A stretch of 64,000 nucleotides of DNA from GCA_000165345.1 CM000431.1:928001-992000; one strand, 5' to 3'. Positions 116 to 50,192 are shown, counted from the first letter of the stretch. The notes: generated by a model not told the origin, from the letters alone. Made by a program: numbers and translations.

Positions 116-402
116 TAAATTGATTCATAAAATGAAATAATAGTGTATTGGCGCCACATATGCATGTAATTTTTGCATTTATTCATTAAATTGTTTGCAT
201 TTTAATTTCATAAATTTTTAAAGTGATTCAAATTTTTCAAATTATTTTTTTCCTCAATATTGGGTGAGTTTATAGTTTAGAGAATATATTTTTGATTCTT
301 TTCTCTCTTTTTCCTTTCTTTCTTATATGTTTTATTCTAAATTATTATTATTATTATTATTCATTTTTTCTAATAAAAACAAATGGTTACCGCTCAACGT
401 GG

Positions 403-413
403 TTGGCGGGAAA
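403..413. promoter_or_regulatory. E2F-like site TTGGCGGGAAA upstream of the 941..2581 gene. A second GGCGCC lies at 150-155.
   Basis: It matches the E2F consensus TTTSSCGC in reverse complement, in a 5' intergenic region. Confidence 0.3.
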
Positions 414-940
414 TATGATATTTAATAATAAATATGAAAAAGCAGAGGAAAATAATGTGAGGTAAATAAAACAAACCCCACTGAAAAAGGACGGATAAAT
501 TAATATATATTTTTTTGAAAAAATTTTTATTATTGAAAGGAATATTAAATTCGCAAAGTAGAAGGAGGGAGTAAGAAAAAATATACAGAGTTGATTTTTA
601 GTGCTAAATTTGGTATTTTGAGACTACTCTGGGTTTGAAAAGAAAACTATTATAATATAAATTCAGCTTGATAATGGAATAAGTATTATTAATATATATA
701 TATGTATATATGTATTTTCCCCTTCTTCTTTTTATCTTATTTAAATAGTAATATTCTTGAACAAGTTTAATTTCTGTATAAAGTTAATAATTAATATTAA
801 GAGTGGTCCTGAATAAGAGCTAATACAAGATATTTTTGATTTTACATCGCAATAATTAGATTTAAAAAAAAGCTTCATTTTAATAAAAAAAATAAAAATA
901 AAATAAATTACAATATTTATATTTTAATGAAAAATTTAAT

Positions 941-2581
941 ATGAGTACTTTTTTAAGAGGTCAATCTCAGATTATGGGAATCAAACCATTATTCCCGGTA
1001 AAACCGTTACTATCAATTTCTTCACCAGATTTTGAGCAAATTTGGAAAGAGGTGAAATGGGATACAAAAAGAGTAAATAGCACATTAGATTTGTTTTCAA
1101 GATTTTGCAAGGATGATTTAGATATTTTACCATATGACTCTACTTCCAATGATATTAATTCAAATAGCGGAGGAGGAATAAACCATTCACAGTTAATGTC
1201 AAACCATAGACTAATGGCATTGTTAAAGTCAATAGCTATAGTTGGTACAGATAGTGATGATTTTAATAACATGGACTTTTTCACAAGAAATGACTTATGC
1301 GTAATAATGACAGGAATTCCTTATATTGACAAAAAGAACTTTCTAAGGTTAATGTGTCTTTTAGACAGATCTACTCCTCACACAACGACTTCACCAGCTG
1401 GAATTTCAAGATTAAAGTTGGTTTTTTCTTATTATGATTGGGGTTGGAAAGGGTATCTGGATGAGTTTGATTGGAAGAGATTAAGAAGTGATATTTTGAA
1501 TTTGACTTATTATGGAAAGTTATACGATACAAATAATAATAGCCATGATTTAAAATCTAGATTAAATGGAACAAACAAAAAAGGAGGTCCAATGCCAGAA
1601 ACTTTAGAGGAAGGACTTAAACAACTTAGTCAAGAAATATCTATTAGATCCTTAAAAAGTACCAATAGTGGATCAAAACTTTTAAAGAATGATAGTATAC
1701 ATATTTCTATTAATGCTAGTAGTACTAGTAATATGAATAGTAATGGTGGCCATTCAGAATATAGCTATTTTGATAATAATCATAATTTTACTGCATCAGT
1801 TCCTTATTCAGTTCAAAACAATGATTTAATCATTGATTTTCCACTTTTTATTAAATTGGTTGAATATAGAATAATTAAAGGAACGTCACAAATCTTACGT
1901 ATTGAACTTCCTGGTAGAGATCAAGAAGAATTTATTGCTAGAAGCATCTTAATAAATGGTGGGAGTATTTTCTTAGATAATTATAAGAATGATAATGCTC
2001 ATTATTCCCCTGATAAGTCTAGTAAAGCTTCTATATATAATCCAATTTCATCTTCAGCACAAAATATTAAATCTGAAATGAACTCACCATCAAAAATTAA
2101 CAATGTTGAGAATGAAGAATTAGATAATATTGAGAAGAAAAAACAAATCATTACTGAACAAATCCAAGAACTAGATAATGAATTAAATAGTCTCAAGATT
2201 TCCATAAAGAATTCACATCTTCCATCAAACTCCCTAGGTATTGATATTTCAAATTTGAATGGAGATACCACTTCAAAGAGTGCAATGGAATCCATTTTTG
2301 GGCCTCCCCCTGAAGATCTACATGGAATTTTCTGTGATCAGCCCAATGATCAACAAGATTTGGCATTTTCCTCTATTGTAGTTCCTTCTTCTTCCACACC
2401 AATTAGGAAGTCAAGATCAATAAGATCAAATGCAATCCCCATAACTCCTATTACAAAAAATGATTCAATCTCGGAACACGCCCACGACTCTAATTCTTTC
2501 ATTGCTGAAAGAAGTAGCACAAATGACTTTCCAAATAATGTTAATAATACAGAACTTGCGGGCCCGCCTATTTTACTTTAG
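941..2581 (+). CDS. Hypothetical protein of 546 aa with N/S-rich low-complexity stretches.
   Basis: Long ORF in an AT-rich genome where stop codons are frequent. Codon usage resembles neighbouring genes. No recognisable domain. Confidence 0.45.
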   Translation: MSTFLRGQSQIMGIKPLFPVKPLLSISSPDFEQIWKEVKWDTKRVNSTLDLFSRFCKDDLDILPYDSTSNDINSNSGGGINHSQLMSNHRLMALLKSIAIVGTDSDDFNNMDFFTRNDLCVIMTGIPYIDKKNFLRLMCLLDRSTPHTTTSPAGISRLKLVFSYYDWGWKGYLDEFDWKRLRSDILNLTYYGKLYDTNNNSHDLKSRLNGTNKKGGPMPETLEEGLKQLSQEISIRSLKSTNSGSKLLKNDSIHISINASSTSNMNSNGGHSEYSYFDNNHNFTASVPYSVQNNDLIIDFPLFIKLVEYRIIKGTSQILRIELPGRDQEEFIARSILINGGSIFLDNYKNDNAHYSPDKSSKASIYNPISSSAQNIKSEMNSPSKINNVENEELDNIEKKKQIITEQIQELDNELNSLKISIKNSHLPSNSLGIDISNLNGDTTSKSAMESIFGPPPEDLHGIFCDQPNDQQDLAFSSIVVPSSSTPIRKSRSIRSNAIPITPITKNDSISEHAHDSNSFIAERSSTNDFPNNVNNTELAGPPILL

Positions 2582-3081
2582 CATAATATTTAATTTTGCT
2601 TGTATACAAAATATATTTGAAGATAATGATAAATTAATAGAAATATAAACCCTAAATTGAACTAGAATAATAATTATTTTAGGTTATGCCGTTATTTAAG
2701 TTAACTTTTTTTGTATTTATTTATTAATAAATGAGTGTCAGTAAATATATTTGAAACCAACTCATATACAGCAATACTTTTGTTTCTTTGTTTATTGCAT
2801 GCAAAGTAAAAATAATTGTGGGAGCTTTGCCGCGCATTTAATTAAAATATTAGTAATAATAGTTGATTCATTCAATAACATTGTAATATATTGGATGAAT
2901 TTGTAGTTATATTGAAGATTAAATTTGAATTGAGTTCATATGATTGTTTTCCAATATATCTAAGCTGATTAAGGTTGCGTATATTTATATATACATATTT
3001 ATGCAAATTGAGTTTGTAATCTTGTGCAATAATATAATACTTTGAAAAAAAATTACCATTACTATATGGCAAATTGATTTC

Positions 3082-3638
3082 TTGAGAAAAACTACTATGA
3101 ATGAAAGTATTGGAGAATTAACAACAATTCCGATCATATATTCGAAACAACACAAAGAAAGACTAGTTCTACTTGAATTCCAGGGATCTTTAAGTATATC
3201 TAAATTGAATACAGAAACTGGGGAAATGATTAATTCTGAAAACAATGACGATTTTAATGACACAGTTATTGGTCAATTGATTAACTTTGATAAAATCTCT
3301 CAAAGTTTAAATAATCCTGAAATTGTCAATCCATTAGAATCTGCAATTCAATATTCTAAAAACAACCCAATAGAACTTAAGGTGGGATACCACAAACTTA
3401 TTGGCAAAGTAAGTTAAATTTTTCTTTTCATTAATAAAAATACTCATAATTTATTACCTCTAATTTTTCTACTACCAATAATATTAAAATATCATTCTAG
3501 TTAGTGAAACTAGAAAAACCTTTAGCCGTCATTCAAAATTCCTCAGAAACACAAGAAAAAGATAAAAGTCACTTAAATATATATGATATTATTCATTTTA
3601 AACTAGTTTTTGAATCTAGACCTTTATTTTCTTCTTAA
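3082..3638 (+). CDS. CTF8: Ctf8-like protein (chromosome transmission fidelity 8, a subunit of the alternative RFC-Ctf18 complex). Two exons: join(3082..3408, 3501..3638).
   Basis: The ORF 3082..3417 ends just after a GTAAGT donor at 3409. A T-rich intron and an AG at 3499-3500 follow. Exon 2 continues in frame as LVKLEKPLAVIQ...FKLVFESRPLFSS to a TAA at 3636-3638. The spliced protein has LLEFQGSL, then YHKLIGK|LVKLEKPLAV, then LVFESRP. Human CHTF8 has the matching LMELQGEI, HHILYGKIIHLEKPFAV and LFKTRPKP (established family knowledge). The human sequence is quoted from memory. Confidence 0.5.
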
Positions 3639-4644: not shown

Positions 4645-7600
4645 TTGGGAATATTTAAGCTGGAAATTAACTTTTTAATAACATTTAATAAAATGAATTC
4701 TCTTGATTTACAAGTTAATGGAATGACATGTACGTCATGTGCTACTACAATAAAAAACTTATTATTACATTACAAATTTGTAAAAGATGTTGAAATAAAT
4801 ATCATTTTAAATAGTGTACGTGTAATATTGAATAAGAAAATCACACTTGATGAAAGAAAAAAGATTTGTGACACAATTAACAATGCAGGATTTATTTGTT
4901 TATTAAAGTCAAGTACAATAATGAATGACATGTTAACTTTAAGTATTGATGACCTTAAGTTAGAAGAAAGAAGTTTAGAAAGTGAAATAATTTATGGAAG
5001 TTCAAAAGATATAGCTGAACAAATTTTGAACAGTAAAGGAATAAAGTTTTTAAAATTACATCAAATACCAACAGAAGAGATGAAATTAATAGTAAAAGCA
5101 TTAGAAAATAAAGCTGGAATTATTACTATAATAAGTTATTTGAAGTGGGGACAATTATGCATTTTATTTGATGAAAATCAGATTACTATAACGCAGATAC
5201 AAGAAATTCTAGAGAAATCTGATATTTGGATGCTAAGTTATATGAAATTCTATTGTTTATTTGGTAAGGAAAAGCTTTCATGTGTAAACAATCTTAAAAT
5301 TAAATGTATTTTCCGTTTAAATTCTGATAGAGAAGGTATTAGCATAATACAAAAGATATATAATTGTTTAAGACGAAGAAATGCAAATATTGAGTTCAAT
5401 AAAGATTTTACAGCAAGTATTGGTTGTATTGTAAGTGGAATCTTTGGGATTTACAATGTATCCGTTGAAAGAATGAATGAAAATAATTTGGAGAGAAATC
5501 TTGTTCTAATGATTTGCATTGATTATAATCCTTACTTTATTTCTGGGAGGAATCTATTAAAATATATGAATGATGAAGTTTTAAAAAACTACGTTAATGA
5601 ACCAATTCTAGATGAACAAATTAATGAAAATAAATTGAGAAAGCAATACTCACATAGGTTAGTGAATTCAATGCAAATTATTACAAAGTGTAATTTGGAT
5701 GAAAGTGTTAATTACTCAAGCCTGCAAAAAATTAAAGATAAGGAGTCTCGATATTATGTTATTTGTTTTACAATTTCTTTAATTTTAACTATTATGGTAC
5801 TATTATATAATTTCTTGGGTGATAAACCCTTTATGTCCAAGTTTACAAGAATTATCTCTTTTAATACAATCAAATCTTTGCAAGATCAAACAGGATTATC
5901 TGGTATTAGTTGGAAATATTTGATAAATTTAATATTAGTCACAGTAGTGGTATATTTATGTGGATATACATTTCATAAGAAAGGAATCAAAAGTATGCTA
6001 TATTTGAATCCAAATATGTATAGCTTAATTTCACTTGGAACAAATACATGCTATTTGTATTCACTTTATATGATGATTTATATAGCAATAATATCTTCAA
6101 AAGGTCCTGAAAATACAAAAATATATTCAGATAAGTTACCCAATTTTTTTGATATTGCTTGTATGCTTATCACAATAAGCTTATTTGGAAGAATTTTGGA
6201 TGTACATTCAAATCTACTGATATTAAGAATTATTAATAATAATAGTAATAAAAATGAAGTTGGTGAAAATGGAGATTCCATGAGGTATAATATAAAAGAT
6301 AATTTTCAATTACTTGGTGAAACTAAATTTGAATCACTTGAAAAAGTTTATTATCATTTTTCAAACTCTGAGAATTGTCAGGTATTACCTTTAGCATCTC
6401 CAAAAGATTTAAAGAAAAATAAGGAATTCCGATCAAAATATAAAAATACAGAAATTGGACAAAAAATGAATACTATGAGCATAGACTCAATTTGTTTGGA
6501 TGATATTTCACCTCAATCTATGGAAATGAAGGAACAGAGCTCAATTATTAATAATATAGTAAATGTTGATTTAATAGATTTGGGGGATGTTATTATTTTA
6601 AAAAAGGATGAAATTGTACCATATGATGGAATTGTTATTTCTAATGATATCGCAGTTTTGGATGAATCAATGATTACTGGTGAAAGCAGAATCATTGAAA
6701 AATTATATGGAAATTTTATATCCAGTGGAAGTAGAGTATTATCTGATAATGTATTCATATTTGTTACTGAAGTAGGAACTGAAAGTACTCTTGGAAAGAT
6801 TCAAAAGTTAAAAATAAAAGCAAGAGAGAGTCAAATAGAGTTACCTGGAATTATTGATATATTTTCCAGATATTTTGTACCTTCAATCATATTATTATCT
6901 TTATTGGCTTTTGTTGTTTGGTTCTTATTAGCTTATTATGACAAAGTGGATCCAGCTAGAATGTTTAATATTGACAGAATAAACTTTAATACAGAATTTG
7001 ATAATATATTTAAAGAATTTCCAATTTCATCCAGAGTTATGTTTGCACTGCATTTCTCACTTTCAATATTGGCAATATCTTGCCCATGTGTTATTGGTAT
7101 TACAGTTCCTATTGCTGTACTTATTTCAACTTCTTTAACTTCAAAAAAGAATATATTGGTACAAAACACAAATATTTTCAATAATATAGGATTTATTGAT
7201 AATATAGTTTTTGATAAAACTGGTACTTTGACAAATGGAAGACCAACTGTCAAATCTATTATTATTGATCATGAACATATTCAAGAAATAATAAGTACTA
7301 CATTTAATAATGGTTACAGTTCAAAATGGGAAAAGTCGACTGATATAGATTTTTCTAATTCTTCTATTGAAACATTTTATATTAATAAGAATTCTAATAT
7401 TCAAGAAAAAAATATTGTTTTTGAAGAATTATTCGAATCTTATTTAAAGTTTTGGTGGATTATTGGATCTTGTGAATATTATAATAATCATCCAGCTGGA
7501 AATGTATTAAGATCTTTCTCAATTCGTCTATTTAATAATAAAGAACAATATAAGTTTACTCAACCTATTGATTGTAAATATATTCCAGGAGTAGGAATGA

Positions 7601-8797
7601 CTTGTATTATTAATAGCATGAAAGTTTTAATTACAAATCAATATAAGCATCTTGATCAAGATTTCAGTTTAGTTTCAGTCAATTCTAAAGATTATAATCA
7701 TTATCTAAAGAGTCCATCTAATACTTTAGAAATTTCTTTAGATAGTCCTGAAAATAAGAGTACAGAATATTCATCATTATATTTGCAGAATTGGCTTAAA
7801 TATTGGTCTAAAAAAGGATCAATGATTATTTACATTTTTATTGGTGATATAAATAACTTCAGTGATAATGAACATGGATTAATTAATGCCAAAAATATGA
7901 AATTAGTTGGTGCAGTTTCTATGATTGATGAACCAATGTTTGGAGTAGAGTCTACAATTAATTATATGAAAAAATATGTAACAGATCAAATATGGTTGTG
8001 CTCTGGTGATTCTTTTTATACATCAAATTCAATTGCGTCAATGGTAAGTTTATTAAAAGAAAAATTCAATAATTTTTGAATAACTTAATATATTTTTAAT
8101 TAAAGGTTGGAATAGATTATGATAAAATTATGAGTAATTCAACTCCTAATGATAAGCTTCATCTTATTCAAGATCTTCAATTAAATAAGGAATTAGATAA
8201 GATATCTAATATTGACTTAAATGAAGAAAAAACAGATAAAGAGTTCTTCAAATCTTTTGATTTAGAATTTCCTGAAAAGAATGAAGAAAATATAAAGAAA
8301 AAACAAAAAAAATCCAAAAAAAATCTAAAAAAAGTAATGATGATTGGAGATGGAATAAATGATTCAGCTTCAATAGAAGCTGCTGACATTGGAATATTAT
8401 TAGGAAAAGGCGGGATAAATAATTTTACGCATGCAGATGTAATAATATTGTCAAATTATCAAAATAATATTAAATTCTTATTTAAGCTTGGAAGGTAAGT
8501 TAAAAAGAGTAAATTAGGAAATTTTGAAGATGAGATTTTTGAGTTGTTTTTTTCCTTCTGATTTACTTAATAATTTATTGATTTAATAACTTTATTATTA
8601 TTATTATTAGAGAAGCACATAAAGTAATTAATAGAAATTTAATATGGGCATATATATTCAATGTTTTGACTATTCCAATGGCGGCGGGAATTTTTTATCC
8701 CAATATAATTATTTCTCCCGTTGTTGCAGCATTTTTAATGCTATTAAGTTCAACAATTATTGTATTTTCAAGTTTAATTTTGTATAAATTTAGATAA
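4645..8797 (+). CDS. Heavy-metal (copper-type, P1B) P-type ATPase with three exons: join(4645..8043, 8106..8494, 8611..8797). The real start may be the internal Met at about 4693 (MNSLDLQVNGMTCTSC...).
   Basis: Exon 1 has an N-terminal HMA metal-binding motif GMTCTSCA. It also has the transmembrane CPC motif (SCPCVIGITVPIAV) and the phosphorylation motif DKTGTLT. The exon-1 ORF ends at a GTAAGT donor at 8044 and the acceptor AG is at 8104-8105. Exon 2 encodes the linker to the hinge and then MMIGDGINDSASIEAADIGI, the GDGxND hinge motif. A second GTAAGT follows at 8495 with an acceptor AG at 8609-8610. Exon 3 encodes the last transmembrane helices (NLIWAYIFNVLTIPMAAGIFYP...), ending with TAA at 8795-8797. 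The reading frame is continuous across both splices. Confidence 0.85.
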
Positions 8798-9886: not shown

Positions 9887-9960
9887 AATTCCCGCTAAAG
9901 GCGGGAAATGTCAATTAGACAATGTATTGTGGCTTAATGTGTGTGAGGGGCGGCGCCAAT
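9887..9960. promoter_or_regulatory. Divergent promoter region between MBF1 (minus) and the EF-hand gene (plus). It holds a palindromic E2F-like pair AATTCCCGCTAAAGGCGGGAAATG at 9887-9910 and GGGGCGGCGCCAAT at 9947-9960.
   Basis: Inverted TTCCCGC/GCGGGAA half-sites sit 5 nt apart. A GGCGCCAAT element follows. Both are GC islands in an AT-rich spacer. Confidence 0.35.
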
Positions 9961-11170: not shown

Positions 11171-12125
11171 GATTGAATTAATTATTATAATGTAAGTTAG
11201 TAACGGTGATAAGTTAAATTGAGATTTGGACATAAAAAAAAGGAAATAAAGGTAAATTTGATGCTGAAAGAATGGGATAAGAAATTTGGGAGGAATACAA
11301 ATTTAGGTATTATGCAAGCGTGATACAAATAGAAAAGAGTCTTGAAGAAAAGCTTGCATACATGACTATTTCGTGGTAATTCAAGTTCTTTCAATAATAC
11401 AATTTATTCTTGAGAATACATATGAACAGTTAAGTTTTAAAATGGAATATTTAAATTTTCGACTTAAATATTCAGCAAAAAAAAATTAACAAAACGACAA
11501 GAAAACAATTTAATCTTATTTTCTATGCAATAAATCAACATTCACTAAAGTGTTGGGAAAGTTAAAAATAATCTGGAGAAGAAAATATTGTGAGGGTTAA
11601 TGGGGGGTTACGACGTTGTTAGAGTGGGATAGCAGAAAATGAATATTGAGAAGTAATACGATCATTTCCTTTCAATATAATGTCACAGATAACACAGTAA
11701 AAATATATTTAAATTAATTTCTGGCACTAATATTTAATACGCAATAAATATAACTAAGAGGGGAATTCAAGTAATTTTTTATGAGGGTATCGGTGAGACG
11801 GGTACGCAAGTATTGTCTCAACAATTACCCCCATTTAAAATAAAGTTAATAATCAAATTAAATAAATAGATAAGAATAATTAAATAGATAGTAGAATAGT
11901 AAAGACCGGAAATGCATAGACGTAAAAGTAAATATAGTTATATAATGCCAAATAAATGGTGAGATATTTAATAGATAAGTCAAGGGGGGGAAGTTTAAAT
12001 TAAAATTGAATAAAATAGGGGCAGGTGAGAGAAGAGATAAAATCATTCTATCAAAAAAAGGGTAATTTTCATTTTTTAAGAAAACTTGAAGATTTTTTAT
12101 TTCTATAAAACAAATAACCATCAAA

Positions 12126-14689: not shown

Positions 14690-17116
14690 TTATACAGGAA
14701 TATGTATATCTAATCTTCCAGCTCTAGTAATACTTTCATCTAGCTCAAGGATATGTTTGTTTGAAAATGCAATCACAATAACGTTTTGATTCTTCTTTTC
14801 AACATTATCTAAACAAAGAAGAAGAGTAGTGAGTAGAGTTCTGGAGTCATTGGAATTTTTTGAAGAAAATTGATCATCATTTTGGTTGTTTTCCAAGAAT
14901 ATATTAGACTGAATTAAGTTTTGTGAAGTCCAATTCAAATTAAACATATTTTTAATTTTTTCTTTATGTGAATTAATTCTAAAAGAAATATCATTAAATA
15001 AATTTGGTGAATAATTAATGAAATTTTGGTTTAATTTGGACTCTTTGGAATCATTTGTTAAGCTTAAATCCATATTTTCTTGAAAAGAGAAAGTATCTGT
15101 TTTATTATTTTGAATTATAAAATTATTTGAAATTACATCAATTCCTTCTAGAATAAGTATTGTAGGAATATTTGTATTGAATAGTTGCCTAATATTTTCT
15201 TCAGACTGTCCAACATAAGGACTTAATAAAGTAAGTATATGTTTTTGTACAAGCTTGTAATTAATATATTGTTTTTGGATATATTTAATTAATTCTTGCT
15301 TTACAATAGAAAGTTTACTTCCATTTAAGTTATTTCTACTATTATATATAAGTATTCTTGGAGTAAATTGTTGATTCATTATTTGGTTTATTTTACTATA
15401 TTCATTCTCAAACAATTTGTAAATTATTAATTGATCATTAACTTGTTGTAATATTGATTTAATACTCTCATCTTTAAAACTAAAATCTCCAGTATTTAAA
15501 GTATTAATCTTCCCATCAAATTTTTCCACAGCTCTATTCTTAAATAATAGCATTTCTTTCTCTTGCAAATAATTATTATATAATGTATTATCAATTACTA
15601 AATTTCTAAATAATATTTCCACTACTTTATAAATTAATTTTTTATCTGAAACTCCAAAACATACTCTAATTATCCAATTCACCATATTAATTCCTGTTAA
15701 ATCATCTCCATTTTTTAATAAATCTTCCTTTAATTGCTCAAAACTATGTTTGTTCAAACTTTGATAATACATTAATTCCAAAAATGTGTCATAATTTTTA
15801 TCTAATAATAAAATAGATATATATTCATTCAATTCCTTTTTTAACCTCAAATATCTACAAAGTAACTCCTTTTCATCCAATTCAGTCTCATTATTAATTT
15901 GTTCTAATAGTAATAATTTAACATTTACATGCGAACACTTGGCGCCAAATGTGTGGAAATTATTTCTTGTCATTAAACATTTTAGGTGGTAAGTATTATG
16001 AAAAGAAGGTTTGGAAGAAATATTATTTTTTTTAAAGATATTAACAAGTTCTGGTTTTTGTGAGTCATTGTATTCAATAAGAATCAGTTTTTTAATGCAA
16101 GTAAATTTTGAAAAATGTTCTTCTAGTTGATCAATTAAATTGTCATTAATTGACAAATTTGAAAAAGATGTAATATAATTATACATAAATATATTAATGG
16201 AAATTATATTTTCCAAATTTGAAATATTAAATCTTGTGATTTCCTCTAAAATATCTTTAACTCTCTCAATTATGTTATTTCTAATATTTTTCAAAACTTT
16301 TATGGAAATATTATTCTCCATTACGTATTTATTCAGAATATACGTAGTATCTAAATAAAAATAACTTAAAGCAATATTATTATTATTAATAATGTTTTTA
16401 ATATTATTAATATTTTTAACCATAAAACTTTCAATTTCTAAATTTTTTGATGTATTATTATTTGTGTTAGAATTAAAGTTTAATTGATTCACATTTGGGA
16501 TAATTAATAGGTTTGAAATAAATTTCATGTAGGTATTCTGAAATTCTTCAGAAATTAGTTTATTCTCTTTAATATATTGAATTTGAAAAAAGTAGTATTT
16601 TTCATTTATTAAAAAAGGTAGGATTAAATTATTGAGTATATCTTTTAAATTATATTCTGTTGAAATAAATTTTAAGTAGTAATAGAATTGCCTTTTTAGA
16701 CCCTCCACTAATAAATTCTTATAATTTAGTAAAAATATATCTGATTGAGTAGTTAATTGTGAAAAAAGAGGTCCAGAAAACACAATATCTGATATAATTG
16801 TTCTATTTGTAATATTTAAGCAATTCTCATTTTTTATATATTTAATATATCCTTTATTAAAATGGCTAATACAACTTAGCCCAGAATGAATATACACTAT
16901 ATCTTCTTTACAAGGATTAATATCATTATTAATTTTAAAAAAAATAAGAAATTTCAAATTTTCCAAATTTAACTCGAGTAAAATAATTCTATCATTCTTA
17001 ATATCATCAAAATCATTATTAGTCAATTTATTCACTAGTTCTCTACTAATTAAAGAAATCCCATCTTTGAGGTCTTCTCTAACCTCGATATTGCATGGTA
17101 TTATATATCTTTTCAT
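14690..17116 (-). CDS. AAA-family ATPase-like protein of 808 aa with a single degenerate AAA module. It is a putative pseudo-ATPase.
   Basis: The C-terminal approximately 200 aa align to a classic AAA domain. SPYVGQSEENIRQLF corresponds to the YVGESEKxVRxLF region after Walker A. ILILEGIDVI is Walker-B-like. LLTTLLLCLDNVEKKNQNVIVIAFSNKHILELDESITRAGRLD matches the second region of homology and keeps the arginine finger. The position where a GPPGxGKT Walker A is expected reads NSRNNLNGSKLS, which is non-canonical. The N-terminal half is unrecognised. The protein ends 6 aa after the SRH, so it may be truncated or have an unrecognised 3' splice. Confidence 0.45.
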   Translation of the reverse strand: MKRYIIPCNIEVREDLKDGISLISRELVNKLTNNDFDDIKNDRIILLELNLENLKFLIFFKINNDINPCKEDIVYIHSGLSCISHFNKGYIKYIKNENCLNITNRTIISDIVFSGPLFSQLTTQSDIFLLNYKNLLVEGLKRQFYYYLKFISTEYNLKDILNNLILPFLINEKYYFFQIQYIKENKLISEEFQNTYMKFISNLLIIPNVNQLNFNSNTNNNTSKNLEIESFMVKNINNIKNIINNNNIALSYFYLDTTYILNKYVMENNISIKVLKNIRNNIIERVKDILEEITRFNISNLENIISINIFMYNYITSFSNLSINDNLIDQLEEHFSKFTCIKKLILIEYNDSQKPELVNIFKKNNISSKPSFHNTYHLKCLMTRNNFHTFGAKCSHVNVKLLLLEQINNETELDEKELLCRYLRLKKELNEYISILLLDKNYDTFLELMYYQSLNKHSFEQLKEDLLKNGDDLTGINMVNWIIRVCFGVSDKKLIYKVVEILFRNLVIDNTLYNNYLQEKEMLLFKNRAVEKFDGKINTLNTGDFSFKDESIKSILQQVNDQLIIYKLFENEYSKINQIMNQQFTPRILIYNSRNNLNGSKLSIVKQELIKYIQKQYINYKLVQKHILTLLSPYVGQSEENIRQLFNTNIPTILILEGIDVISNNFIIQNNKTDTFSFQENMDLSLTNDSKESKLNQNFINYSPNLFNDISFRINSHKEKIKNMFNLNWTSQNLIQSNIFLENNQNDDQFSSKNSNDSRTLLTTLLLCLDNVEKKNQNVIVIAFSNKHILELDESITRAGRLDIHIPV

Positions 17117-17564: not shown

Positions 17565-17613
<49 letters not shown>

Positions 17614-18325: not shown

Positions 18326-19305
18326 TCTTACTAGTTATTTGATTCCTTTAATCAACGTGAAATTTAACTTTGATTTTTTTTTTAAAAAAAAAGTTTCCTC
18401 CTTTTTTTCCGGTGGATGTTTTTTTTCCCTTGAAGAATATTCACCTTAATTTAAAAAAGAAACAAAATATACTTATTGTCACGTGTATATTTTACGTTGA
18501 CTTTTAATTATTATATTATATTTACTTTAGTATATAATTTATTAATTATTTATTTAAACAAAAAAAAAATAAATATTTGTCTCGTCGGTACCGCTTTAAT
18601 GCCGGTCAATATATTATTATTTTCAAGAAGAAAAAAAAATATTTTTATTTTAAATAAAAATTGTCTCAAAAATGGGCGCCAATTATAACTTATGAATTGA
18701 ATATATAAATAATAATAAATGCATGAATTAGAGGAATTTTTTTTTTGTTCTTATTTAGAATTTCAATTGATAAATACAATTTTAAAATAAAGATTTAGTG
18801 ATATGAAATGAAGATAGAAGAAGATAAAACTTTTAATTGTTGATATTAAATCTTTATTAATTTCTTTTGAGTACTATGTTTTTTTTTTTCTTAATATAAA
18901 AAAAGTTATATACAAATTTAATACTCAATTATAATTATAAGGAAAAAAGATAAGCGCACACAAAATCTTTAGTTATTAAGTATTTATTAAAACCTCAAAG
19001 TTAAATAATATTGCATTATTTGTAAATTAGTATATTTAACCTTTTAAAAGGGTCCTATTTTAAATTGTATAAATAAAATGATTTATCGATTTCTAAAAAA
19101 AAAATCTTAACTTTAATAAGTTGGTCTTGTTAAATTACATTCAATAATTCTAAATAACTTATCTGAAAAATTTTAAAACCAAATATATTATGGCTAACAC
19201 GTAATATATTTATTAATGTAAAATAAAAAGGTTTGCACTTTACCGCCAAAAGTCTAAATAAATATTAATTTAAATATAGGAATAATTTGATCATTATAAA
19301 TTAAT

Positions 19306-21182: not shown

Positions 21183-21722
21183 TTTCTTTGTTTATTTTCC
21201 ACTTTTTATTAATTAATATTAGTACAATAATGAATACTGGTTCTCATTAAAATGTAAGAATTTTCAGAACTTCTTCATTTCAATAAATATTAGAAATTAT
21301 TTTATTCTTATTATTAAGACTTTTTCTTATAGAATTTTTTTATTTTATTTTTATTTTTTTAATCGTTTTTAGCTTGCAATTATGCCGGTATAGGAAATCG
21401 GACTTTTTAAAAAAAACATTTGCACCCCACATTTTACCGCCACACGTAATTAGTAATTTTTACATGAATTAATTAAACATGGGATATAATTATCAATGTA
21501 AAAATAAATTATTAAAAAAAAAAAAAAAAAAGTTGACAATAGAAATTCGTGGAAAAATTAATTTATAATTAAGAATTTTCATTCGAGAATATTAATAATA
21601 AGATTTCAATAATTTCAATCAAGTTTGAATTGAGGTGAAAAAGTGAAAATAGGGAACAGAAAAGGACTTGTGTGAATTGATGAATTCAAGAAAATTGCAT
21701 CTACAACTATTTTTGAGCTAAA

Positions 21723-26822: not shown

Positions 26823-26856
<34 letters not shown>

Positions 26857-27857
26857 TATATATTTCAAGAAGGTTTGGAATCGGATTATAATTTCAAAAT
26901 TGCTTGGTTTATTGAAACTATTTATTACATATATATAATACTAATTTCCATATGCAGTCTTCTAAATTATAACAATGTTATTATTATTATTATTATATAT
27001 TACCTAAAGTTGGAATATACATAACCAAATTTGAACCTTATCAGTATATATGTAATTTTTTGTTTAAATAAAATACCAATTAATTATTAAAGTAATTTTC
27101 CAGTCTCCTTATTATGTCTTTAGCTCATTTAAATTGACTAGGCAAGTTGTTAGCCTCAAGAAATTTTGGGAATATTACTTTATAATAAAATGTTATGTTA
27201 ATCCCTCACCTAAATTAATCAAGTGCAAAAAAGGCCTCTTTTTACATTAAATTAAAAATTTATAATTAAATATTACTTCTTTATAATCCATTTATTCAAG
27301 ATATTAAAAAAGGCGGTATGCATGCAATTAGTGATATTATCATTTTGTGCTAATACCGGTATTAATAAAAATAATAATAATAAATAATATATAATGCAAT
27401 TATATATTATTATATTTATGGAAAAATTTTGAAATTAAAGAAAATATATTAATAAAGTTTTAATTCTAAATTTTGAAATTACATTAAAAAATTCCTGAAA
27501 AAAAAAATAATATATATATTTATATAAAGAGTTGTCAATTAATGAATTTTCATTTAATTCAATATTTAATTAATATTGATCGTGTGTTTTTTGAGCGGGA
27601 AAATTTTCCATATCTAGAAAAATTAAAATAATTTGGCAAATTAATATTAAAAATATTTTTTGATAATAAGAGGGGTATGGTGGGAATTTTGGTCAAAAAG
27701 AGCAAAAGAGAAGAAAGAAAAATATATTTTTTAAAAATTTAATTAAAGTTGAAATAAAATATAAATTTTATATATTAATATTAAGAATTTATTTGAAGAA
27801 TATTTAATAATTTTAATTTATCGAAATAAACTTCTCATTATTTGTAATTAAAGAGAA

Positions 27858-31160: not shown

Positions 31161-31842
31161 ATATGATAGTATACGATAGGATAGGGTAGGATAAGGGATA
31201 ATGTTGTATTGTTTTGAATTGGATTTTACAATTGAAATTAATACAAATATGCATAATAAAAAGATTGAACAAGAAAATAAAATGACAGGATTAAATAAGA
31301 ATGAAAGAAAAGAAGAAAATTCTTTTAATTATTATAAAATAGATAGTAGTTTTTTTAATATTAATTAATAATAAAAATATGAACAATTTCTCAATTTGTA
31401 TTATATGAAGAGAATTTGTTAATATTTAATATTGTGTAACTATATTATCATAAACAATAAATCTAGATTTGAATATTTGTTTAACAATTTCTAAAGAAGT
31501 AAGACCCAAATTGAAATAATAATTACTTTGGAAATATGTTTCACATGGATTAATTAAAAAAAAAGAAATTATGTTATTAATAATAAGAAGAATCTTTTTC
31601 AATTAAATATTAAAAAATGTATAAGTTTTCTGTTTGGCGCCATAATCAAAAAAAGACAATGTTTGGGCGGTATAATTAGAAAAATAATAGAGACTGATAG
31701 AGTTAAAAAAAAAAAAAAAATAAAGATAAAAGGACAGAAAAGTAGTGACTCTCGTATTTATTTATTGACTTAAAAGGATCAAGATAGACGAGGATTTATT
31801 TTGAGGTAGTGAGAACGGAATATAATTAGAGGATAATCATCC

Positions 31843-33399: not shown

Positions 33400-34288
33400 G
33401 GACTTTTACAAAGTTAGAATTCTTTTTCTATATCAAACAGGTGGATATACTATATTATGGCTATATTAATTTTCTAATTTACTCATGTCCACATTAATAT
33501 TCTTTACTTTTTCAAAAATAATTAAAATGTTCCCATTGAACATACTAATAGAACTTATTAGACTTTAAATATCATCTGAAATAGCTAATAAATCGCTTGC
33601 TAAGTTTTACAAGTACTATTTCTTTTAACTTTTTTGAGATTTATTTATTTTTTCTTTTTGAGATCGATTTGAGTTTGAATGGAGATAATTTTATTATTAT
33701 TATTGAATTGAGAAAAAATACTTTTAAAATAAATTAATATAGTGAAAAAAAAATTAAGTAAAAAAAATACGAGTTTCTAAATCTAGTATGTTCATAAATC
33801 TGTAGTATTTTTTAATGAAATTAAATTTTTCAAATGGCTTTAATAATAATGTAAAGTATTCTGGTACTCCATCATTTAGCATTAAATGACAATTAAAAAG
33901 CTTCCATGATTCCCGCCGGCGGCAACATGCAAAAATGTGGGTTTTGTGGGTTAGTGAGGGGAGAATAATCATTAAGCTAAAATATCAACAGGGAGGAATA
34001 CAAAGATAGTGAGAATTGGATCTTTGGAATAATTTTGCCACATTTTCTTTCGCTTGGCACTGTATCATCTTAGTAGGCTTTATCACGGTTGAATTTCCAG
34101 GTCTTATTATTTGATTAAAAGACAGCTTTTCGATCGATTAATTTTGAATTAATACTTGAAGCTCAGTCAAAATCCAAATTCTAAGGGTCAAGACTTATTT
34201 TCAAATAAAGGAGAGGCTAAGGAAAACTTATAAAGAGGATTTGATTAAATAATGCACTTTAGCTTTAGAGAATAAAGTAAAGTTCAAA

Positions 34289-35734: not shown

Positions 35735-36315
35735 TAATTAAATTAAAAAATATATTCCAACCACTTATTTCAAATTTTATTATATTAAATCGATAAATTT
35801 AAATATAATTATAACTGTCTAAATCAATTTTTGTAATTAACTTATCCACCACTTTTCATACATTCATTCATGTTCTATTCTAACTTCCGTCAATGTTTAC
35901 CTAAATTCAGCTTTACAAGAAATGACTAAGGGGTAAAACCAATAAGGCGCCATTATTTGGCGGTAGACGTGGCGGCAAATTCCTTTTAAAAAATTATGGA
36001 CAAGATTGGGGAAAAAAAATAAACTGAAACTGTTGCTGAAGAGATTTATGCAATTTGAGAAGGTGATTAAACCGTTAATTCTCAGTGCATTTTCATGATA
36101 CTCTATTGGTTGAATATAGCGTAATATTTATACAAGATCTATGATTTTCTTTGATTAAGTGTGGAAACAATAATTGGCAATTTTAAGAATAAAGTGTTTA
36201 AAGATAAAAAAAAAAAAAAACTTTCTAATTATTCTGGAAGATAATATATACTGCTTTCATATAAGAACTGCCGACTTTCTCATTTCAAAAAAAATAGAGT
36301 GATTGTTTCGTAAAT

Positions 36316-37585: not shown

Positions 37586-37619
37586 CTGGCGCCAAACAAA
37601 GCCACATTGGCGCCAAAAT
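37586..37619. promoter_or_regulatory. Tandem GGCGCCAAA elements (CTGGCGCCAAAcaaagccacaTTGGCGCCAAAA) about 175 nt upstream of Snu114.
   Basis: Two copies of the palindromic E2F-type core TGGCGCCAAA lie 21 nt apart. Confidence 0.35.
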
Positions 37620-41577: not shown

Positions 41578-42360
41578 TTTTATTTATTCCTCTTCACAAA
41601 CTAAGATCTGAGTCTTGAAATTATTTTAACTTTTTTCTTTTAGATAACTTATTTCAATTTCTTGAAACTCGTCTTGTTTAAGAATAATTAGTTATTTCCC
41701 AATAATTTGTCTAATTGGACTCGCGCCATAAACAAAAAAATATAAATTCTTTTTTCTTTTAAAATTATTATTTAATTAAATGTATAATATATGATGTATA
41801 TATATTTTATATATAAATATATATAAAATATATATTATAAATTTGTACCTGAATTTTTTTTTGTGTATTATAATCTCTATAGACTATTACTATTTATTTA
41901 TTCTTCGCGTCTCATTTCTTTTATAATAATTAAAAACAAAATACCGCCAAAACTAGACACGTGTATTGGCGGGTTTTATTTGGAAATTACTTAAAAATAT
42001 TGCTAGTGGCGATAATATTTTACATGTAAAAAAAAAACAGAGCACACTAAAATACTTGTAAAGGGGGGAAATAGAAAATAAAAAAATTATAAATAATTTT
42101 TTAAAAATAAGAAAAGTGGTGCATTTGATTGAAAAAAAGAACTTTATTCCGAGATTATGATGTTGTTGGTGTTCTTGACTAATTCAGAATAAGAAGAAAG
42201 TGTTAATTTAGGAAGAAACCTACAGAAAGGGTCGAATTAAATATAATAAATAAGTAATTAATTATTATTGGAAGGATAATTGTGCGAAGTTTATGAAATT
42301 AGAGGTCAATACGAATTAATTTTGAGTTTTTATCATTATCATTGAATTAAAGTAATAGTC

Positions 42361-45300
42361 ATGAATTTAACCAATGAGAATATTTCAAACCAGGGCCAGG
42401 AGATTTCAAGGAATGGGAATTTTGAGATAATTGATAATGGGAAATCCGAAGATAATAGTAAGGAAATAATTCTTGAGAAATGTAGGGTAAAAGTTTCTTC
42501 AGATGGAGTTTATGAATCATTGCCAGTTGAAAGAAAAAGTATCGATGCTAAATCCAGTGAGAAGGCAAGCGATAAAATTCAAGGGGATACTGTTTTTGAA
42601 GTTTTACCTAGATCAGAGTCTAATGCAGATGCAAGTTATAATAAAGCTGGTGACTTTGTTAATGATATCGGGATTTTTGAGTCATTACCAAAATCAACTT
42701 CTGATGCTGATTATAAGTATAATGAAAGGGTGGATATTACACAAGATAGGATTGTTTTTGAAGTATTACCACGCTCTGATAATATTGTTCACTATGATAA
42801 TGACACCAGTAATGAATCTTCTATTAAAGTAAATGAAATGATTAAAAAGAAGGAGTCAGAATTGAATAATATTTTAAAAGAGCAGAAAATTGATGGAGAT
42901 ATTACTAGTAGAAATGGGAATATAGAAAATGATCCTACTTTAGGTTTAAGTATTTATAACGAAGAATCAGTTTCTCCTCCATCTGAAACTTCGATGACCA
43001 TTTTTGAGAATTTACCAATTAAGAAAGAAAATATCGATATCGATAACGAGTTTCAATCAAATTCTATTTTATCAGACAATAATATAATTGAGAATCATCA
43101 ATCAATTTTTGAAACTGCAAACTTGTCCAGATCAAATAGTTCTTCTCATATTTCTAGCTTAAAGGATGGTGAGGAAGCTGAAAGACTAACGAGTAATGAA
43201 GTGAGTGAGCATAGTGAAATTAGTAATGATGAATGCGAAAAAGATCTAAAAAGTAATTTTGAGCTTAATAATCAATTAATTACTGATTTTAATCAAGATG
43301 TAAAAACTCAAGATAAAAAAGAGCTTTCACCACAAGTTGAGAGCAAAGCAAATCTTAATATTGTTGTAAATAGTGAGAAGTCGGTCTTTGAGGTAGTTCC
43401 ATCTGAACAATCAAGAGCTGATATTGGGTATAATTCCAAAATACCACTAAGTTTTGATGAAAGGACGGTTTTTGAATCAAAGCCTGTAGCGAATTCAAAT
43501 GCAGATGTTAGCTATAATTCAAAGGTTGGTATCACAAAAGCAGAAGAAAGGTCAGTATTTGAGTCATGTCCAATTACTGATTCGAAGGCAGATGTTAGTT
43601 ATAATTCAAAATTTCAGCCAAGAAAAGACGAAAAAATTATATTTGAATCGAATCCAATTGCTAACTCGAATGCAGATGTTGGATACAATACAAAAATTGG
43701 CTTAGAAAGACAGGAAAAGTCAACTTACGAATCAATCCCTACTATCGGGGTAGTAGCAGATGTTAGCTACAAATCCAAAGCACAAACTAATTCTGGAAAT
43801 GAAAAGTCTATTTTTGAATCTGTTCCAATTTCCAATTCAATAGCTGATGTCAGTTATAATTCTAAATCACAGCCTATTAAAGAAGAAAAGGTTGTATTTG
43901 AATCAATTCCATCAGAAAATTGTAAGATAGATGTGAGTTATAATTCCAAGTTGGATTTGAAAGGACAGGAAAAGTCAGTATTTGAATCCAATCCTATGAT
44001 GACTTCCAATGCTGATGTAGGTTACAATTCAAAGCCAGAAATAAATTTGAATGAGAAATCCGTCTTTGAGTCGGTTCCATCCAATATTTCAAAAGCCGAT
44101 GTGAGTTATAACTCGAAAATAACTAATACTTCTGAGAAGTCAATCTTTGAATCGGAGCCAATAAAAAATGTTAATATAGACGTGAGTTATAATTCCAAGT
44201 TGGATTTGAAAGGACAGGAAAAGTCAGTATTTGAATCCAATCCTATGATGACTTCCAATGCTGATGTAGGTTACAATTCAAAGCCAGAAATAAATTTGAA
44301 TGAGAAATCCGTCTTTGAGTCGGTTCCAACCAATATTTCAAAAGCTGATGTGAGCTACAACTCTGTAGTAGCCAATACTTCTGAGAAGACCATTTTTGAG
44401 TCAGAACCAAGAAGGAACTCAGTGGCGGATGTAAGCTATAACTCCAGTTTGATTCCTATTTCTAAGGATGAAAAGACTGTATTTGAATCCAATCCAAATG
44501 TTGATTCAAAGGCAGATGTTAGTTATAATTCTAAAATAGAATTAAAAAAAGACGAAAAGTTTGTATTTGAGTCAAATCCTAATGTTGATTCTAATGCAGA
44601 TGTTAGTTATAATTCAAAGCTTCAGCCAAGAAAAGACGAAAAATTCATATTTGAATCTAATACGACAGTTAACTCTAAGGCAGATGTTAGTTATAATTCA
44701 AAATCTGAACCTAAAATGAACGAGAAGTCCGTATTTGAGTCCAGTCCAATTCTTAGCTCAGTTGCAGATGTTGGGTACAACACCAAAGGAGTTGGTATGA
44801 CTCAAGAAAAATCTGTCTACGAATCAGTTCCAATTAGTAAATCTAAAATAGATGCTGGCTATGATACAAAGTTGGACTTTACTCATGAAAATAATAAAAC
44901 TATATTTGAATCAAACCCATCTTGTGAATCTATTGCGGATGTTGGATATAATTCAAAGATTGAAACAAGAACAGAAGAAAAATCAGTTTATGAGTCAAAT
45001 TACGATAAAGTTTCTAAGGCTGATGCTAGATATAATTCAGATTCAAGCCAAATCTATCCTCCAGAGAAGATGGTATATGAATCAACTCCTGTTGTTGGAT
45101 TAGCTGTGGATGCAAGGTTTGCAGATCAAAACAATACAAACGAAGAGAAGCAAACAGTTTTTGTATCTCTTCCAAGGTCTGAGTCAGTTTTTGATGCAAG
45201 CTACTCGTTAAATAATGAATATAGGCAGGAAAAGACAATATTTGAGTCAGTACCCAATACAAAAGGGATCAGAATAGATGCAAGATCCAGTGATACCTCT

Positions 45301-45384: not shown

Positions 45385-45451
45385 ATTTTCAATTTGAGTT
45401 AAAATTTAGATTCAAATAATACAATTATAAAAATGTTCTTTCTAATGAGAT

Positions 45452-47605: not shown

Positions 47606-48033
47606 ATTTAAAAGTCTTATTATTTCAGCTTAGCAGTTTTGTTCAACTTTAATTTCCTTAAATTAATATAAAATAATGAAAATAGCAATATCTATAACGT
47701 ATTAAAGCAAATTTTAATGTCTTTAGTACTTAAAAGCTCAAAACCTAAATCAACAGTAATTTTATCTTTTTATTCAGGCCTTTAATTTAACCAAAAAACT
47801 GAAATATCTTTTTAAATATATTAACATGGGGCCCCCTCAAAAATCTAAAAAGTTGGCGCCTTTTCGGTTCTAATGTTATAAAACCTGCAACCCTGGAAAA
47901 AATAAAATAATTTTTTGAATGTAACAAAAGTGTGATGAAAAAAATATATACGAATTGAATAAATAGAGAATAGTGTGCTTACTAATATAAGTTTAGGTAA
48001 AAACTAGGAATTATATATTTTGAATTTTGTAAA

Positions 48034-49593
48034 TTATCTAACAAATTGTCTATTGTCATTTTTATCTCTAACACCATATGGATTAGAAGCAGAAAATTTA
48101 TGGCCGGATTTAAAATATGGATTGCTACTTTTATTCTTAGATTTGTTACCTGCATTTCTAGAAGCTTTTCCACCCGATTTTAAATTTAAGTCAACTTTAG
48201 GAGGCGTACTGAACCCAAAACTGAATGCAATTTGCTGTAAATCAAGAGAATATACATTAAATGCATCTTTGAGTGCATGAGAAGCATAAGAATGTAAATA
48301 TGCTCTGTAGGCATCTCTAGCTGAACAGTGGAGATGATAGTTCTTTTCAATAAGCCTTTCGAGCTGATTTTGAACATTAGCAACTTTATTTTTTCCAAAA
48401 ACATATTCATTTAATGGAATATTCATCTTTTTAAGATATTGAAGGAAGGCAATTTCTTCAGGAAGAAGGAATAATAAGGCTTTTCCAGTACCACCAGCTC
48501 CTCTTGCGGTTCTTCCAACTCTATGAATATATTCTCTAGGATCATCAGGAGGGTCATATTGAACAATCCAATCAACATTTGGAATATCTAAACCCCTTGC
48601 AGCAACATCAGTACATAATAATAAACCTTTATCAGCTGAACAAAAATCATAATAAGTTTGCATTCTAGAAGTTTGTTTCTTCTTTCCATGTATTGATGAG
48701 CAAGTTAAATCTACATAATTAAATAATTCTTCATGAAATTTGGTTGACATACAGCTACTAAAGAAGACCATAACTTTTTTATCTCTATTCTTCTTAAGAA
48801 ATGTATATAATAGCAAGAATCTTTGATTAGCTTGAGCTATAACATATCCTTGCTCAAGTCCTGAAACTGTTGCAATAGAAGAAGTATTTTTAGATTCAAC
48901 AAGAACTGGATTTTTAAGTGAAAGTCTAACAAGATCAGCAACTTTAGTTGTCTGAGTAGCAGAAAAAAGAGAAGTTTGTCTTTCTTTTGGAAGTAATTTA
49001 ATAATTTGATTCATTTCTTCTTCAAAACCAATTTCTAGAATTCGATCAGCTTCATCTATAACTAGATTCAATAAATTTTTAAATAAGAATTGTTTTGTAT
49101 TCTGTAAGTGATCTAAAAGTCTTCCAGGAGTAGCCACTAATATATTAACACCTTTAGAAAGCTTTTCTGCTTCAGTTCTCCTATTTGCTCCTCCCATAAC
49201 CAAACCATGAGTTTGTGGTAAATATTTACAAAGCTCTCTGCATACTTCATAAATTTGGAGACTTAATTCTCTAGTTGGTGAAATGACAATAACACCAGTT
49301 CCATTTCTAGGTAAGAATTCTACATTATATAGTAGATTTGCCGCAGGAATTAAGAACGCTAAAGTCTTACCTGAACCAGTCTTTGCAGCTCCTAAAACAT
49401 CCTTACCATTTAAAATTCGAGGAATTGCTTTTGCTTGAATTTCTGTCATAGTTTCCATCCCCATTTCTTTAAGGGCTTTTTTTAGTTGGTCACAAATATT
49501 TGATGATTCAAATTTCACATCACTAAAATATTCTGATGACTTTTCATTTTCATTTGTATTGTTTTCGTTCTTTTTTTGTTCCTCCCCAGACAT
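48034..49593 (-). CDS. HAS1: DEAD-box ATP-dependent RNA helicase of the Has1/DDX18 type, involved in ribosome biogenesis.
   Basis: 519 aa. It has the Q motif, motif I ([15 protein letters not shown]), motif II (VIDEAD), SAT and HRVGRTARG. The C-terminal basic tail is typical of Has1. Confidence 0.85.
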
Positions 49594-49741
49594 CTTGACA
49601 ATTTTAAGTAATTTAAAATATTTCTTCTTTTCTTATTATTTTTCCCAAGAAAAAATGAATCCTAGATTATCTTTTTTTTTCAATTGTCAAAATCTGACGA
49701 TCTTTTACTTAATTATTATTATTTGGAAATATTTGTTCTCC

Positions 49742-50192
49742 ATTGGCGCCAATATTAAAATCTTAGAGAGGAAATATTTACTTCTAAAGAAAGAAAGAGA
49801 GAAAAGAAAAGGAATTTTTTTCTTAGATAACTTCAGTGCGGAATCTAGGTAATCTTGACATATTATAGAATTTAACATAAAAATAAACACATAAACATTT
49901 AGATATACTAAATTGTTTCATATAGTGTGAAATAAGAAATTTAATTTTTTTTTTTCAGACATTTAGTTTCTAATTAAACAAGAAAGATCACACTATTTTC
50001 TGTAGGAGAATTTTTAACTGTTTAATATAAAACTTTAAGTAAATGGGAATTAATTTTAAACATATTATTATTATCTTTTCTTTTAATTGCACTTTTACAT
50101 GAAAATTGCAAACAAAAAAAAATTAATGGTCAGATTTACCCGCCTAGGCGCCAATTCCAATTTGAAGTAATTTTGAGACAGCTGTCTCAAAA
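49742..50192. promoter_or_regulatory. Divergent promoter between the Has1 helicase (minus) and RPL27A (plus). It holds ATTGGCGCCAAT at 49742-49753, TAGGCGCCAATT at 50145-50156, and a perfect 22-nt palindrome TTTTGAGACAGCTGTCTCAAAA at 50171-50192.
   Basis: The motifs are read directly. The palindrome has a CAGCTG (E-box-like) centre. Confidence 0.35.

Follow-up and report, generated by a model that had tools for sequence, protein, structure and literature searches.

The canonical binding site of the E2F/DP transcription factors of animals and plants reads TTTSSCGC, with TTTGGCGCCAAA as its palindromic form and TTTCCCGCC in Arabidopsis. Among apicomplexans, Cryptosporidium is the only genus reported to retain E2F/DP (PMC3734150, PMC12246861). 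Here we describe E2F-like boxes in a 64-kb stretch of Cryptosporidium parvum DNA (GCA_000165345.1, CM000431.1:928001-992000; 64,000 nucleotides, the window in what follows), which occur at most of its promoters and are probably E2F/DP-bound promoter elements of general use. The two E2F genes of C. parvum, cgd1_1560 (cgd1_1570 in PMC3734150) and cgd6_1430, and its two DP genes, cgd7_3650 and cgd8_1850, all lie outside the window; no Rb orthologue has been reported in Cryptosporidium (PMC3734150).

Motifs of this kind were seen by Bankier 2003 and Mullapudi 2007 (as cited in PMC3734150) and were catalogued by Oberstaller et al. 2013, whose motif 3 (DTTGSCGCCH) is overrepresented in 114 clusters and whose motif 4 (TTTGGCGGGAAV) in 47 (PMC3734150). 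Of all putative binding sites in C. parvum, those of the E2F-like type are the most abundant, with overrepresentation upstream of 163 of the 200 expression clusters, or 2,379 genes including those for ribosomal proteins, and they are not bound to a single expression time (PMC3734150). A 2025 preprint reports E2F as the top motif in sporozoite peaks from the assay for transposase-accessible chromatin with sequencing (ATAC-seq), with more than half bidirectional promoters (bioRxiv 10.1101/2025.01.17.633476). A comparison with published Cryptosporidium motifs, proposed in a preliminary description of this DNA, identifies both forms of box in the window as motifs 3 and 4 of Oberstaller et al. (PMC3734150).

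Enrichment and placement of the boxes

Two main forms of GC-rich box, TTGGCGCCAA and TTGGCGGGAAA, recur in the AT-rich spacers of the window (Table 1). They stand out as the GC islands that the preliminary description had reported, each box having a GC content of 40-80% against 18-31% in its 100-bp flanks, and all 13 of the coordinates given there as examples hold the sequences named for them, such as TTGGCGCCAC, TTGGCGGGAAA, CTGGCGCCAAACAAAGCCACATTGGCGCCAAAAT and ATTGGCGCCAAT. We divided the spacers into 20 promoter-side spacers (each of 20 bp or more and with one or two promoter sides; together 15.5 kb, 24% of the window) and 7 convergent (3'-3') spacers (2.3 kb), genes making up 46 kb, and took expected motif counts from 100-1000 dinucleotide-preserving shuffles. 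The whole window holds 12 copies of GGCGCC (0.36 expected), 37 of GGCG[C/G][C/G/T]A, or GGCGSBA (1.45 expected), and 12 of the canonical E2F consensus TTTSSCGC (0.87 expected). For [C/G]GCGC[G/C], GGCGGG or CCCGCC in promoter-side spacers, 16 matches were found against 0.44 expected, and 0 of 1000 shuffles reached that count. When the k-mers of the spacers were ranked de novo, excluding A-runs, AT repeats and other low-complexity words, GGCGCCAA/TTGGCGCC emerged as the top 8-mer at 358-fold, followed by the related words ATTGGCGC, TGGCGCCA and TGGCGGTA and then by TGCATGCA and ACACGTAA. The enrichment over shuffled controls, a check suggested in the preliminary description, and the k-mer ranking together establish that the boxes are real and far beyond chance.

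Alignment of 29 intergenic matches on their core gives the consensus TT-GGCG[G/C][C/G/T]-AA(A/T), with an A immediately 3' of the core in 26 of the 29 sites. Read on either strand, this consensus is TTTSSCGC, the canonical E2F/DP site. The boxes are at times palindromic or doubled, as had been noted: three sites are full palindromes (TTGGCGCCAA), and doubled or tripled sites with a spacing of 8-25 bp occur at 9887-9960, 33909-33925, 35945-35980, 37586-37619 and 50135-50156. We found no match to Rfam families (at the gathering score) or tRNA models anywhere in the 64 kb, and an origin of the GC islands in RNA genes was rejected on this basis.

Table 1. E2F-like sites in the window, with position, strand and location relative to genes; distances are to the start codon.
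Site	Position	Strand	Location
E2F-like site ATTGGCGCCACA; 148-157 reads TTGGCGCCAC	147..158	.	791 bp upstream of 546-aa gene (941..2581, +)
E2F-like site TTGGCGGGAAA, published motif 4 type	403..413	+	536 bp upstream of 546-aa gene
Canonical E2F consensus TTTGCCGCGC	2826..2835	+	270 bp upstream of Ctf8 (3097..3638, +)
Cluster: inverted pair TTCCCGC / GGCGGGAAA, then GGCGGCGCCAAT	9887..9960	.	divergent MBF1/EF-hand spacer
Perfect palindrome TTGGCGCCAAAT	15939..15950	.	within AAA808 coding sequence (minus-strand gene), ~1.2 kb from its ATG
TGGGCGCCAATT	18673..18684	+	350 bp upstream of RPL19 (minus strand), divergent RPL19/WD40 spacer
Variant TTTACCGCCAAAA (reverse strand GGCGGTAAA)	19239..19251	-	64 bp upstream of WD40 gene
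Composite TTTTACCGCCACACGTAA: GGCGGT-type variant TTTTACCGCCACACGT adjoining ACACGT	21432..21449	-	APsigma/LIG1 spacer
AAGGCGGTATGCATGCA: E2F-like variant fused to TGCATGCA box	27310..27326	+	PUB592/IleRS spacer
GAGCGGGAAAA	27593..27603	+	263 bp upstream of IleRS
TTTGGCGCCAT and TGGGCGGTA	31633..31672	+	207 and 177 bp upstream of Cbf5
Back-to-back sites ATTCCCGCCGGCGGCAA	33909..33925	.	~375 bp upstream of Nuf2
Triple site AGGCGCCATTATTTGGCGGTAGACGTGGCGGCAAAT	35945..35980	+	upstream of 196-aa gene
Doubled site CTGGCGCCAAA ... ATTGGCGCCAAAAT (whole: CTGGCGCCAAACAAAGCCACATTGGCGCCAAAAT)	37586..37619	+	205 and 184 bp upstream of Snu114
CTCGCGCCAT	41720..41729	-	145 bp upstream of RPL30 (minus strand)
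Inverted pair ATACCGCCAAAAC ... ATTGGCGGGTTTT	41941..41977	.	RPL30/1007-aa spacer
TTGGCGCCTTTT	47853..47864	-	250 bp upstream of 717-aa (2OG-oxygenase-like) gene, minus strand
Palindromic ATTGGCGCCAAT	49742..49753	.	152 bp upstream of Has1 (minus strand)
Doubled site TTTACCCGCCTAGGCGCCAATT	50135..50156	+	~350 bp upstream of RPL27A
Weaker E2F-like site TTTGCCGCCC	51529..51538	+	751 bp upstream of 439-aa gene
Weak half-site-like match TAGCGCCAAC	51779..51788	+	503 bp upstream of 439-aa gene
Variant site TAGGCGGTAAC	58817..58827	+	508 bp upstream of PUA-domain gene
Variant site TTTGGCGGTAAAA	59084..59096	+	240 bp upstream of PUA-domain gene
GAGGCGCCAAAT	62272..62283	+	within 799-aa coding sequence; 331 bp upstream of next gene (62605, +)

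The boxes were placed relative to 29 gene models, which are NCBI gene calls on stretches of C. parvum IOWA-ATCC chromosome CP044420.1 (GCA_015245375.1), transferred to the window through exact anchors. The Cbf5-like protein of the window (31843-33399) has an exact match on that chromosome, and positions 2126-63602 correspond to three of its stretches at 99.99-100% identity. Models with names include Ctf8, a P-type ATPase, MBF1, EF-hand, HSP90, RPL19, WD40, AP sigma, LIG1 and PUB-domain proteins, and further IleRS, Cbf5, Nuf2, Snu114, RPL30, Has1, RPL27A, the condensin subunit Cnd2 and a PUA protein.

Core matches fall in promoter-side spacers in 29 of 38 cases, and the strict motif is present in 13 of the 20 promoter-side spacers but in none of the 7 convergent ones. 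The distance from a site to the downstream ATG in tandem spacers is 174-749 bp (median ~350), and no site is closer than 177 bp to the stop codon of the upstream gene. Divergent spacers usually carry one site per gene, as between Has1 (49742-49753, 152 bp) and RPL27A (50135-50156, ~350 bp). The distribution relative to start codons, which the preliminary description had put forward as a further check, is thus non-random. The statement made there that the motifs recur in nearly every promoter region was too strong. If the GGCGGT(A) variant and the canonical TTTGCCGCGC are counted too, Ctf8, LIG1/AP sigma and the PUA gene join the list and the total rises to about 16 of 21 upstream regions; together with the strict count, this amounts to two-thirds to three-quarters. 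Five regions have no E2F-like site in any form: the 122aa/P-ATPase spacer, the UBA-PUB/Cnd2 spacer and those upstream of HSP90, AAA808 and the 799-aa gene.

Genes with sites include RPL19, RPL30, RPL27A, IleRS, Cbf5, Has1, Snu114 and MBF1, and also Nuf2 and Ctf8. The proposal that use of the motif is broader than cell-cycle genes therefore holds, because sites stand at genes of translation and ribosome biogenesis as well as at Nuf2 and Ctf8. Its replication and mitosis examples fared unevenly: Nuf2 stands, LIG1 has only a GGCGGT-type variant, and the promoter of condensin subunit Cnd2 has no site. Thus we did not find among the genes of the window the preference for cell-cycle, replication and mitosis genes that marks a classical E2F regulon. 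The broad gene set bears on the regulon, not on the identity of the site.

Within gene models, 7 core matches were found against 0.95 expected. The match at 8678-8691, ATGGCGGCGGGAAT, codes for PMAAG, a conserved motif of the P-type ATPase; coding constraint explains it, and a hidden promoter at this place was rejected. The P-type ATPase itself (4693-8797) is annotated differently in two C. parvum assemblies, as 1247 aa ending at 8498 or as 1308 aa ending at 8797, and the longer model is supported because frame 8600-8797 encodes conserved C-terminal membrane segments, PMAAG included. Another match inside a gene model, at 2563, lies 534 bp upstream of Ctf8. At 62272-62283 and at 62561, two more stand 331 and 44 bp ahead of the gene that starts at 62605 (+), whose spacer from the 799-aa gene is only 12 bp long (62593-62604); the E2F-like site and a CGCGCG box (62556-62570) are both inside the 799-aa coding sequence. 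It is plausible that they belong to a promoter embedded in that coding sequence or are internal to a polycistron, the two genes being co-transcribed as in the polycistrons of a 2025 preprint (bioRxiv 10.1101/2025.01.17.633476). The palindrome at 15939-15950 could be due to chance or could mark an internal or antisense promoter.

Other short elements accompany the boxes. ACACGTAA/TTACGTGT occurs seven times in the window (4372, 14596, 17240, 19197, 21442, 55112 and 55190), with 6 occurrences in promoter-side spacers against 0.16 expected, mostly at promoters that have no strict E2F box (P-ATPase, AAA808, WD40, LIG1 and, twice, Cnd2). We considered it as a substitute motif where the E2F-like site is absent and rejected this, since across species it is kept only at LIG1, as CCGCCACACGT. 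The ACGT-type strings searched for are absent from Oberstaller 2013 (ACGT, CACGT, ACACG; PMC3734150) and 2014 (CACGT, ACGTG; PMC4117751). Upstream of HSP90 there are G-runs, GGGGGG at 11602-11607 and GGGGGGG at 11984-11990, which agree with the published G-box of C. parvum heat-shock genes (PMC3734150).

Conservation across Cryptosporidium species

Syntenic loci were fetched from the orthologues of Snu114 and LIG1 in C. canis, C. felis, C. ryanae, C. xiaoi and C. andersoni. In the first four of these species, corresponding spacers have sites of the same kind, placed about as far from the genes as in C. parvum. With six species pooled, promoter-side spacers (43.2 kb) hold 65 sites and convergent spacers (6.8 kb) none; at the promoter rate ~10 sites would be expected in the latter, a comparison that carries no formal probability since the species are related. 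Gene order and E2F-like boxes are kept between loci that differ widely in base composition, with a GC content of 49% in C. canis (L011), 43% in C. felis and 28% in C. parvum. In C. canis and C. felis the enrichment persists even though the spacers have 34-46% GC, and their coding sequence is at or below expectation (2 against 4.8 in the GC-rich C. canis).

Individual sites can be followed from species to species. The RPL19/WD40 spacer has a GGCGCC site in C. felis and C. ryanae as well, and the same two species keep the sites upstream of Cbf5, the LIG1 variant composite as CCGCCACACGT, and, in the PUB592/IleRS spacer, the composite GGCGG(T/G)-N-TGCATGC, an E2F-like box with an AP2_1 box that is thus shared by C. 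parvum, C. felis and C. ryanae (L016 15524; L017 15068). A GGCGCC site upstream of the 2OG-oxygenase-like gene is present in all five intestinal species, and the Has1 site in all five species whose fetched locus covers Has1. The CCGCC-N-GGCGCCA pair at RPL27A is kept in C. canis and C. felis, that is, wherever the fetched locus covers it. Upstream of Snu114 the site is doubled in C. canis (with a spacing of ~22 bp) and single in C. felis, C. ryanae and C. xiaoi; for this spacer, presence was scored per spacer in place of MAFFT alignment columns, because site positions shift between species and MAFFT gave no register.

Some blocks are invariant in spacers that have otherwise diverged, as in the RPL30/1007-aa spacer and upstream of the 196-aa gene, where TTGGCGGTAAGACATGGCGG is nearly invariant in an alignment of five species. 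At the position orthologous to 41720..41729, upstream of RPL30, C. canis has GGCGCCAAA. The inverted pair of the RPL30/1007-aa spacer aligns to ACCCGCCAAAAC ... GGCGGG, an invariant block in four other species. Directly 3' of GGCGGG (41965-41995), TTTATTTGGAAA.TAC is invariant in C. parvum, C. canis, C. felis, C. ryanae and C. xiaoi and could be a start-site or second-factor element. Within the block to which the inverted pair aligns, C. parvum reads ACCGCC where the other species read CCCGCC, and the GGCGGT form is therefore a derived variant of the E2F-like site. The 1007-aa gene beside this spacer, the repeat protein of the preliminary description, has an internal tandem duplication at 43546-44410 (~610-bp segments with a 255-bp offset and 77% identity in BLAST self-hits); its Pfam matches appear to be due to low-complexity sequence.

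Two features that seemed regular in C. parvum were rejected on comparison. The A-rich flank of asymmetric GGCGCC sites mostly faces the downstream gene in C. parvum, but on inspection, with no formal count, the orientation is opposite at the orthologous sites of C. ryanae and C. xiaoi. An overlapping CCAAT box (GGCGCCAAT, five times in C. parvum) is not conserved, because the orthologous sites of other species read GGCGCCAAA or GGCGCCAT.

The factor behind the boxes

The motif, its enrichment, its restriction to promoter sides, its position and its conservation site by site are direct observations. The E2F-like reading of the preliminary description agrees with them, in that the consensus matches TTTSSCGC on either strand, is specific to promoter sides and is conserved across species, and we consider it probable, with good confidence, that the boxes are E2F/DP-bound promoter elements of general use. 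The sites, of 10-12 bp and the form TTGGCG[C/G][C/G]AA(A), often palindromic (TTGGCGCCAA) or doubled, would be bound by E2F/DP winged-helix heterodimers, which would contact the pseudo-symmetric GCGC/GCGG core and gain affinity from the T/A flanks; the palindromic core fits binding by a dimer. The presence of the motif in open chromatin of sporozoites (bioRxiv 10.1101/2025.01.17.633476) is indirect evidence of occupancy. Once bound, a site would mark the adjacent gene's promoter or open it, and in divergent pairs each gene would usually have its own site. Rather than a cell-cycle-specific switch, the element would then be a general promoter element, serving housekeeping and translation genes and some genes of replication or mitosis. 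We infer the identity of the binding protein in this way, and any role in activation or repression likewise.

Several points weigh against this assignment. With five regions free of sites, the element does not qualify as a universal core promoter element, and the palindrome at 15939-15950, inside the AAA808 coding sequence, has no obvious promoter role. Site distances are relative to the ATG rather than to the start of transcription. The cross-species counts come from related species and are not phylogenetically independent, and few orthologous sites are kept in C. andersoni, the most distant species, which has shorter spacers; even so, its 3.1 kb hold 2 strict sites, where 0.04 would be expected, and some weaker ones. 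According to a 2025 review, most components of Cryptosporidium gene regulation are without functional validation, and the use made of the E2F factors is unknown (PMC12246861).

The absence of an experimental demonstration that E2F/DP binds the sites (PMC12246861) leaves room for functional promoter elements bound by some other factor, such as an uncharacterized ApiAP2 protein, a zinc-finger protein or another GC-box binder, with the resemblance to E2F sites being coincidental. In keeping with such a factor, the expression of the E2F genes does not follow that of ribosomal protein genes with the motif (PMC3734150), and the GGCGGT-type variants and the composites with ACACGT or TGCATGC hint at additional partners. 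We nevertheless judge it unlikely: the match to the E2F consensus spans core and flanks in both published forms, palindromic sites suit a dimer on a symmetric GCGC core, and among Apicomplexa the E2F/DP genes and the motif are reported together only in Cryptosporidium. Moreover, the C. parvum AP2 domains tested on protein-binding microarrays bind TGCAT, CACACA or G-box motifs and not this one, and the E2F motif has been grouped with motifs recognized by non-AP2 proteins (PMC4117751).

The sharp spikes in GC content, and the coincidence of the boxes with open chromatin in the published sporozoite ATAC-seq data (bioRxiv 10.1101/2025.01.17.633476), would also be expected of a property of the DNA itself, with GC islands that exclude or position nucleosomes or act as replication or recombination signals. 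This explanation is very improbable, since the GGCG[C/G][C/G] core and its A flank are kept in C. canis and C. felis in spite of the higher GC content of their spacers, other GC-rich words have no comparable enrichment, and the invariant alignment columns coincide with the E2F core. Patterns of GC-rich words picked by eye in AT-rich DNA run a general risk of being chance or compositional artefacts, and some of the few in-gene matches are due to coding constraint (8678-8691); to an artefact as the source of the boxes we give practically no weight, as it is already refuted by the shuffles (0 of 100-1000 reach the observed counts), by the absence of sites from convergent spacers in six species and by the conservation of orthologous sites.

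Beyond binding by E2F/DP, it is quite possible, if short of probable, that in this genus the E2F/DP site has been repurposed from a cell-cycle switch into a default, promoter-defining element. One or two boxes per gene would have been held in place throughout the radiation of the intestinal species and would give rise to open promoters, many of them bidirectional. Where a spacer has shrunk to a few bases, its boxes would persist in upstream coding sequence, as may be the case at 62272-62283, and an ACACGT-containing or G-box element would serve genes that have no E2F-like boxes. Conservation site by site and absence from 3'-3' spacers fit this proposal, most of which has already been made in the literature.

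Comparison with described E2F sites and apicomplexan promoter motifs

Both the motif and its breadth of use are already published, and therefore the present analysis adds no new concept. Minor additions are that individual sites leave footprints in C. canis, C. felis, C. ryanae, C. xiaoi and, in part, C. andersoni, that convergent spacers lack the motif, and that a GGCGGT(A) variant recurs. Well-defined conserved sites for tests are those upstream of Snu114 and in the Has1/RPL27A and RPL30/1007-aa spacers. The motif appears to organize most promoters of Cryptosporidium, an important diarrhoeal pathogen and the sole apicomplexan reported to retain E2F/DP; the element is therefore central to understanding, and possibly to manipulating, its gene expression.

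Nothing essential separates the sites of the window from motifs 3 and 4 of Oberstaller et al.: they share the organism, both sequence forms, the upstream location and the breadth of targets, ribosomal protein genes included. The proportions also agree, with 65-75% of upstream regions carrying the motif in the window against ~72% of genes in the published set (2,379/3,281 in clusters; PMC3734150).

With the E2F/DP site of animals and plants, the boxes have in common the core, the T/A flanks, the promoter-proximal location and the frequent palindromic or doubled layout. The animal and plant site is concentrated at genes of G1/S, replication and mitosis, under the control of Rb-family pocket proteins. 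In contrast, the sites of the window stand at most housekeeping and translation genes, and the promoter of a condensin subunit has none.

In other apicomplexans too, translation genes that are co-regulated have short conserved boxes upstream, and the genomes are likewise compact and AT-rich. Their ribosomal protein genes carry ApiAP2 binding motifs, a G-box in Plasmodium and piroplasms and a TRP-2/TGCAT-like motif in Toxoplasma, which differ from the boxes described here in sequence and in the family of DNA-binding protein. That RPL19, RPL30 and RPL27A carry E2F-like boxes is in line with the substitution of regulators proposed for Cryptosporidium (PMC3734150, PMC4117751).

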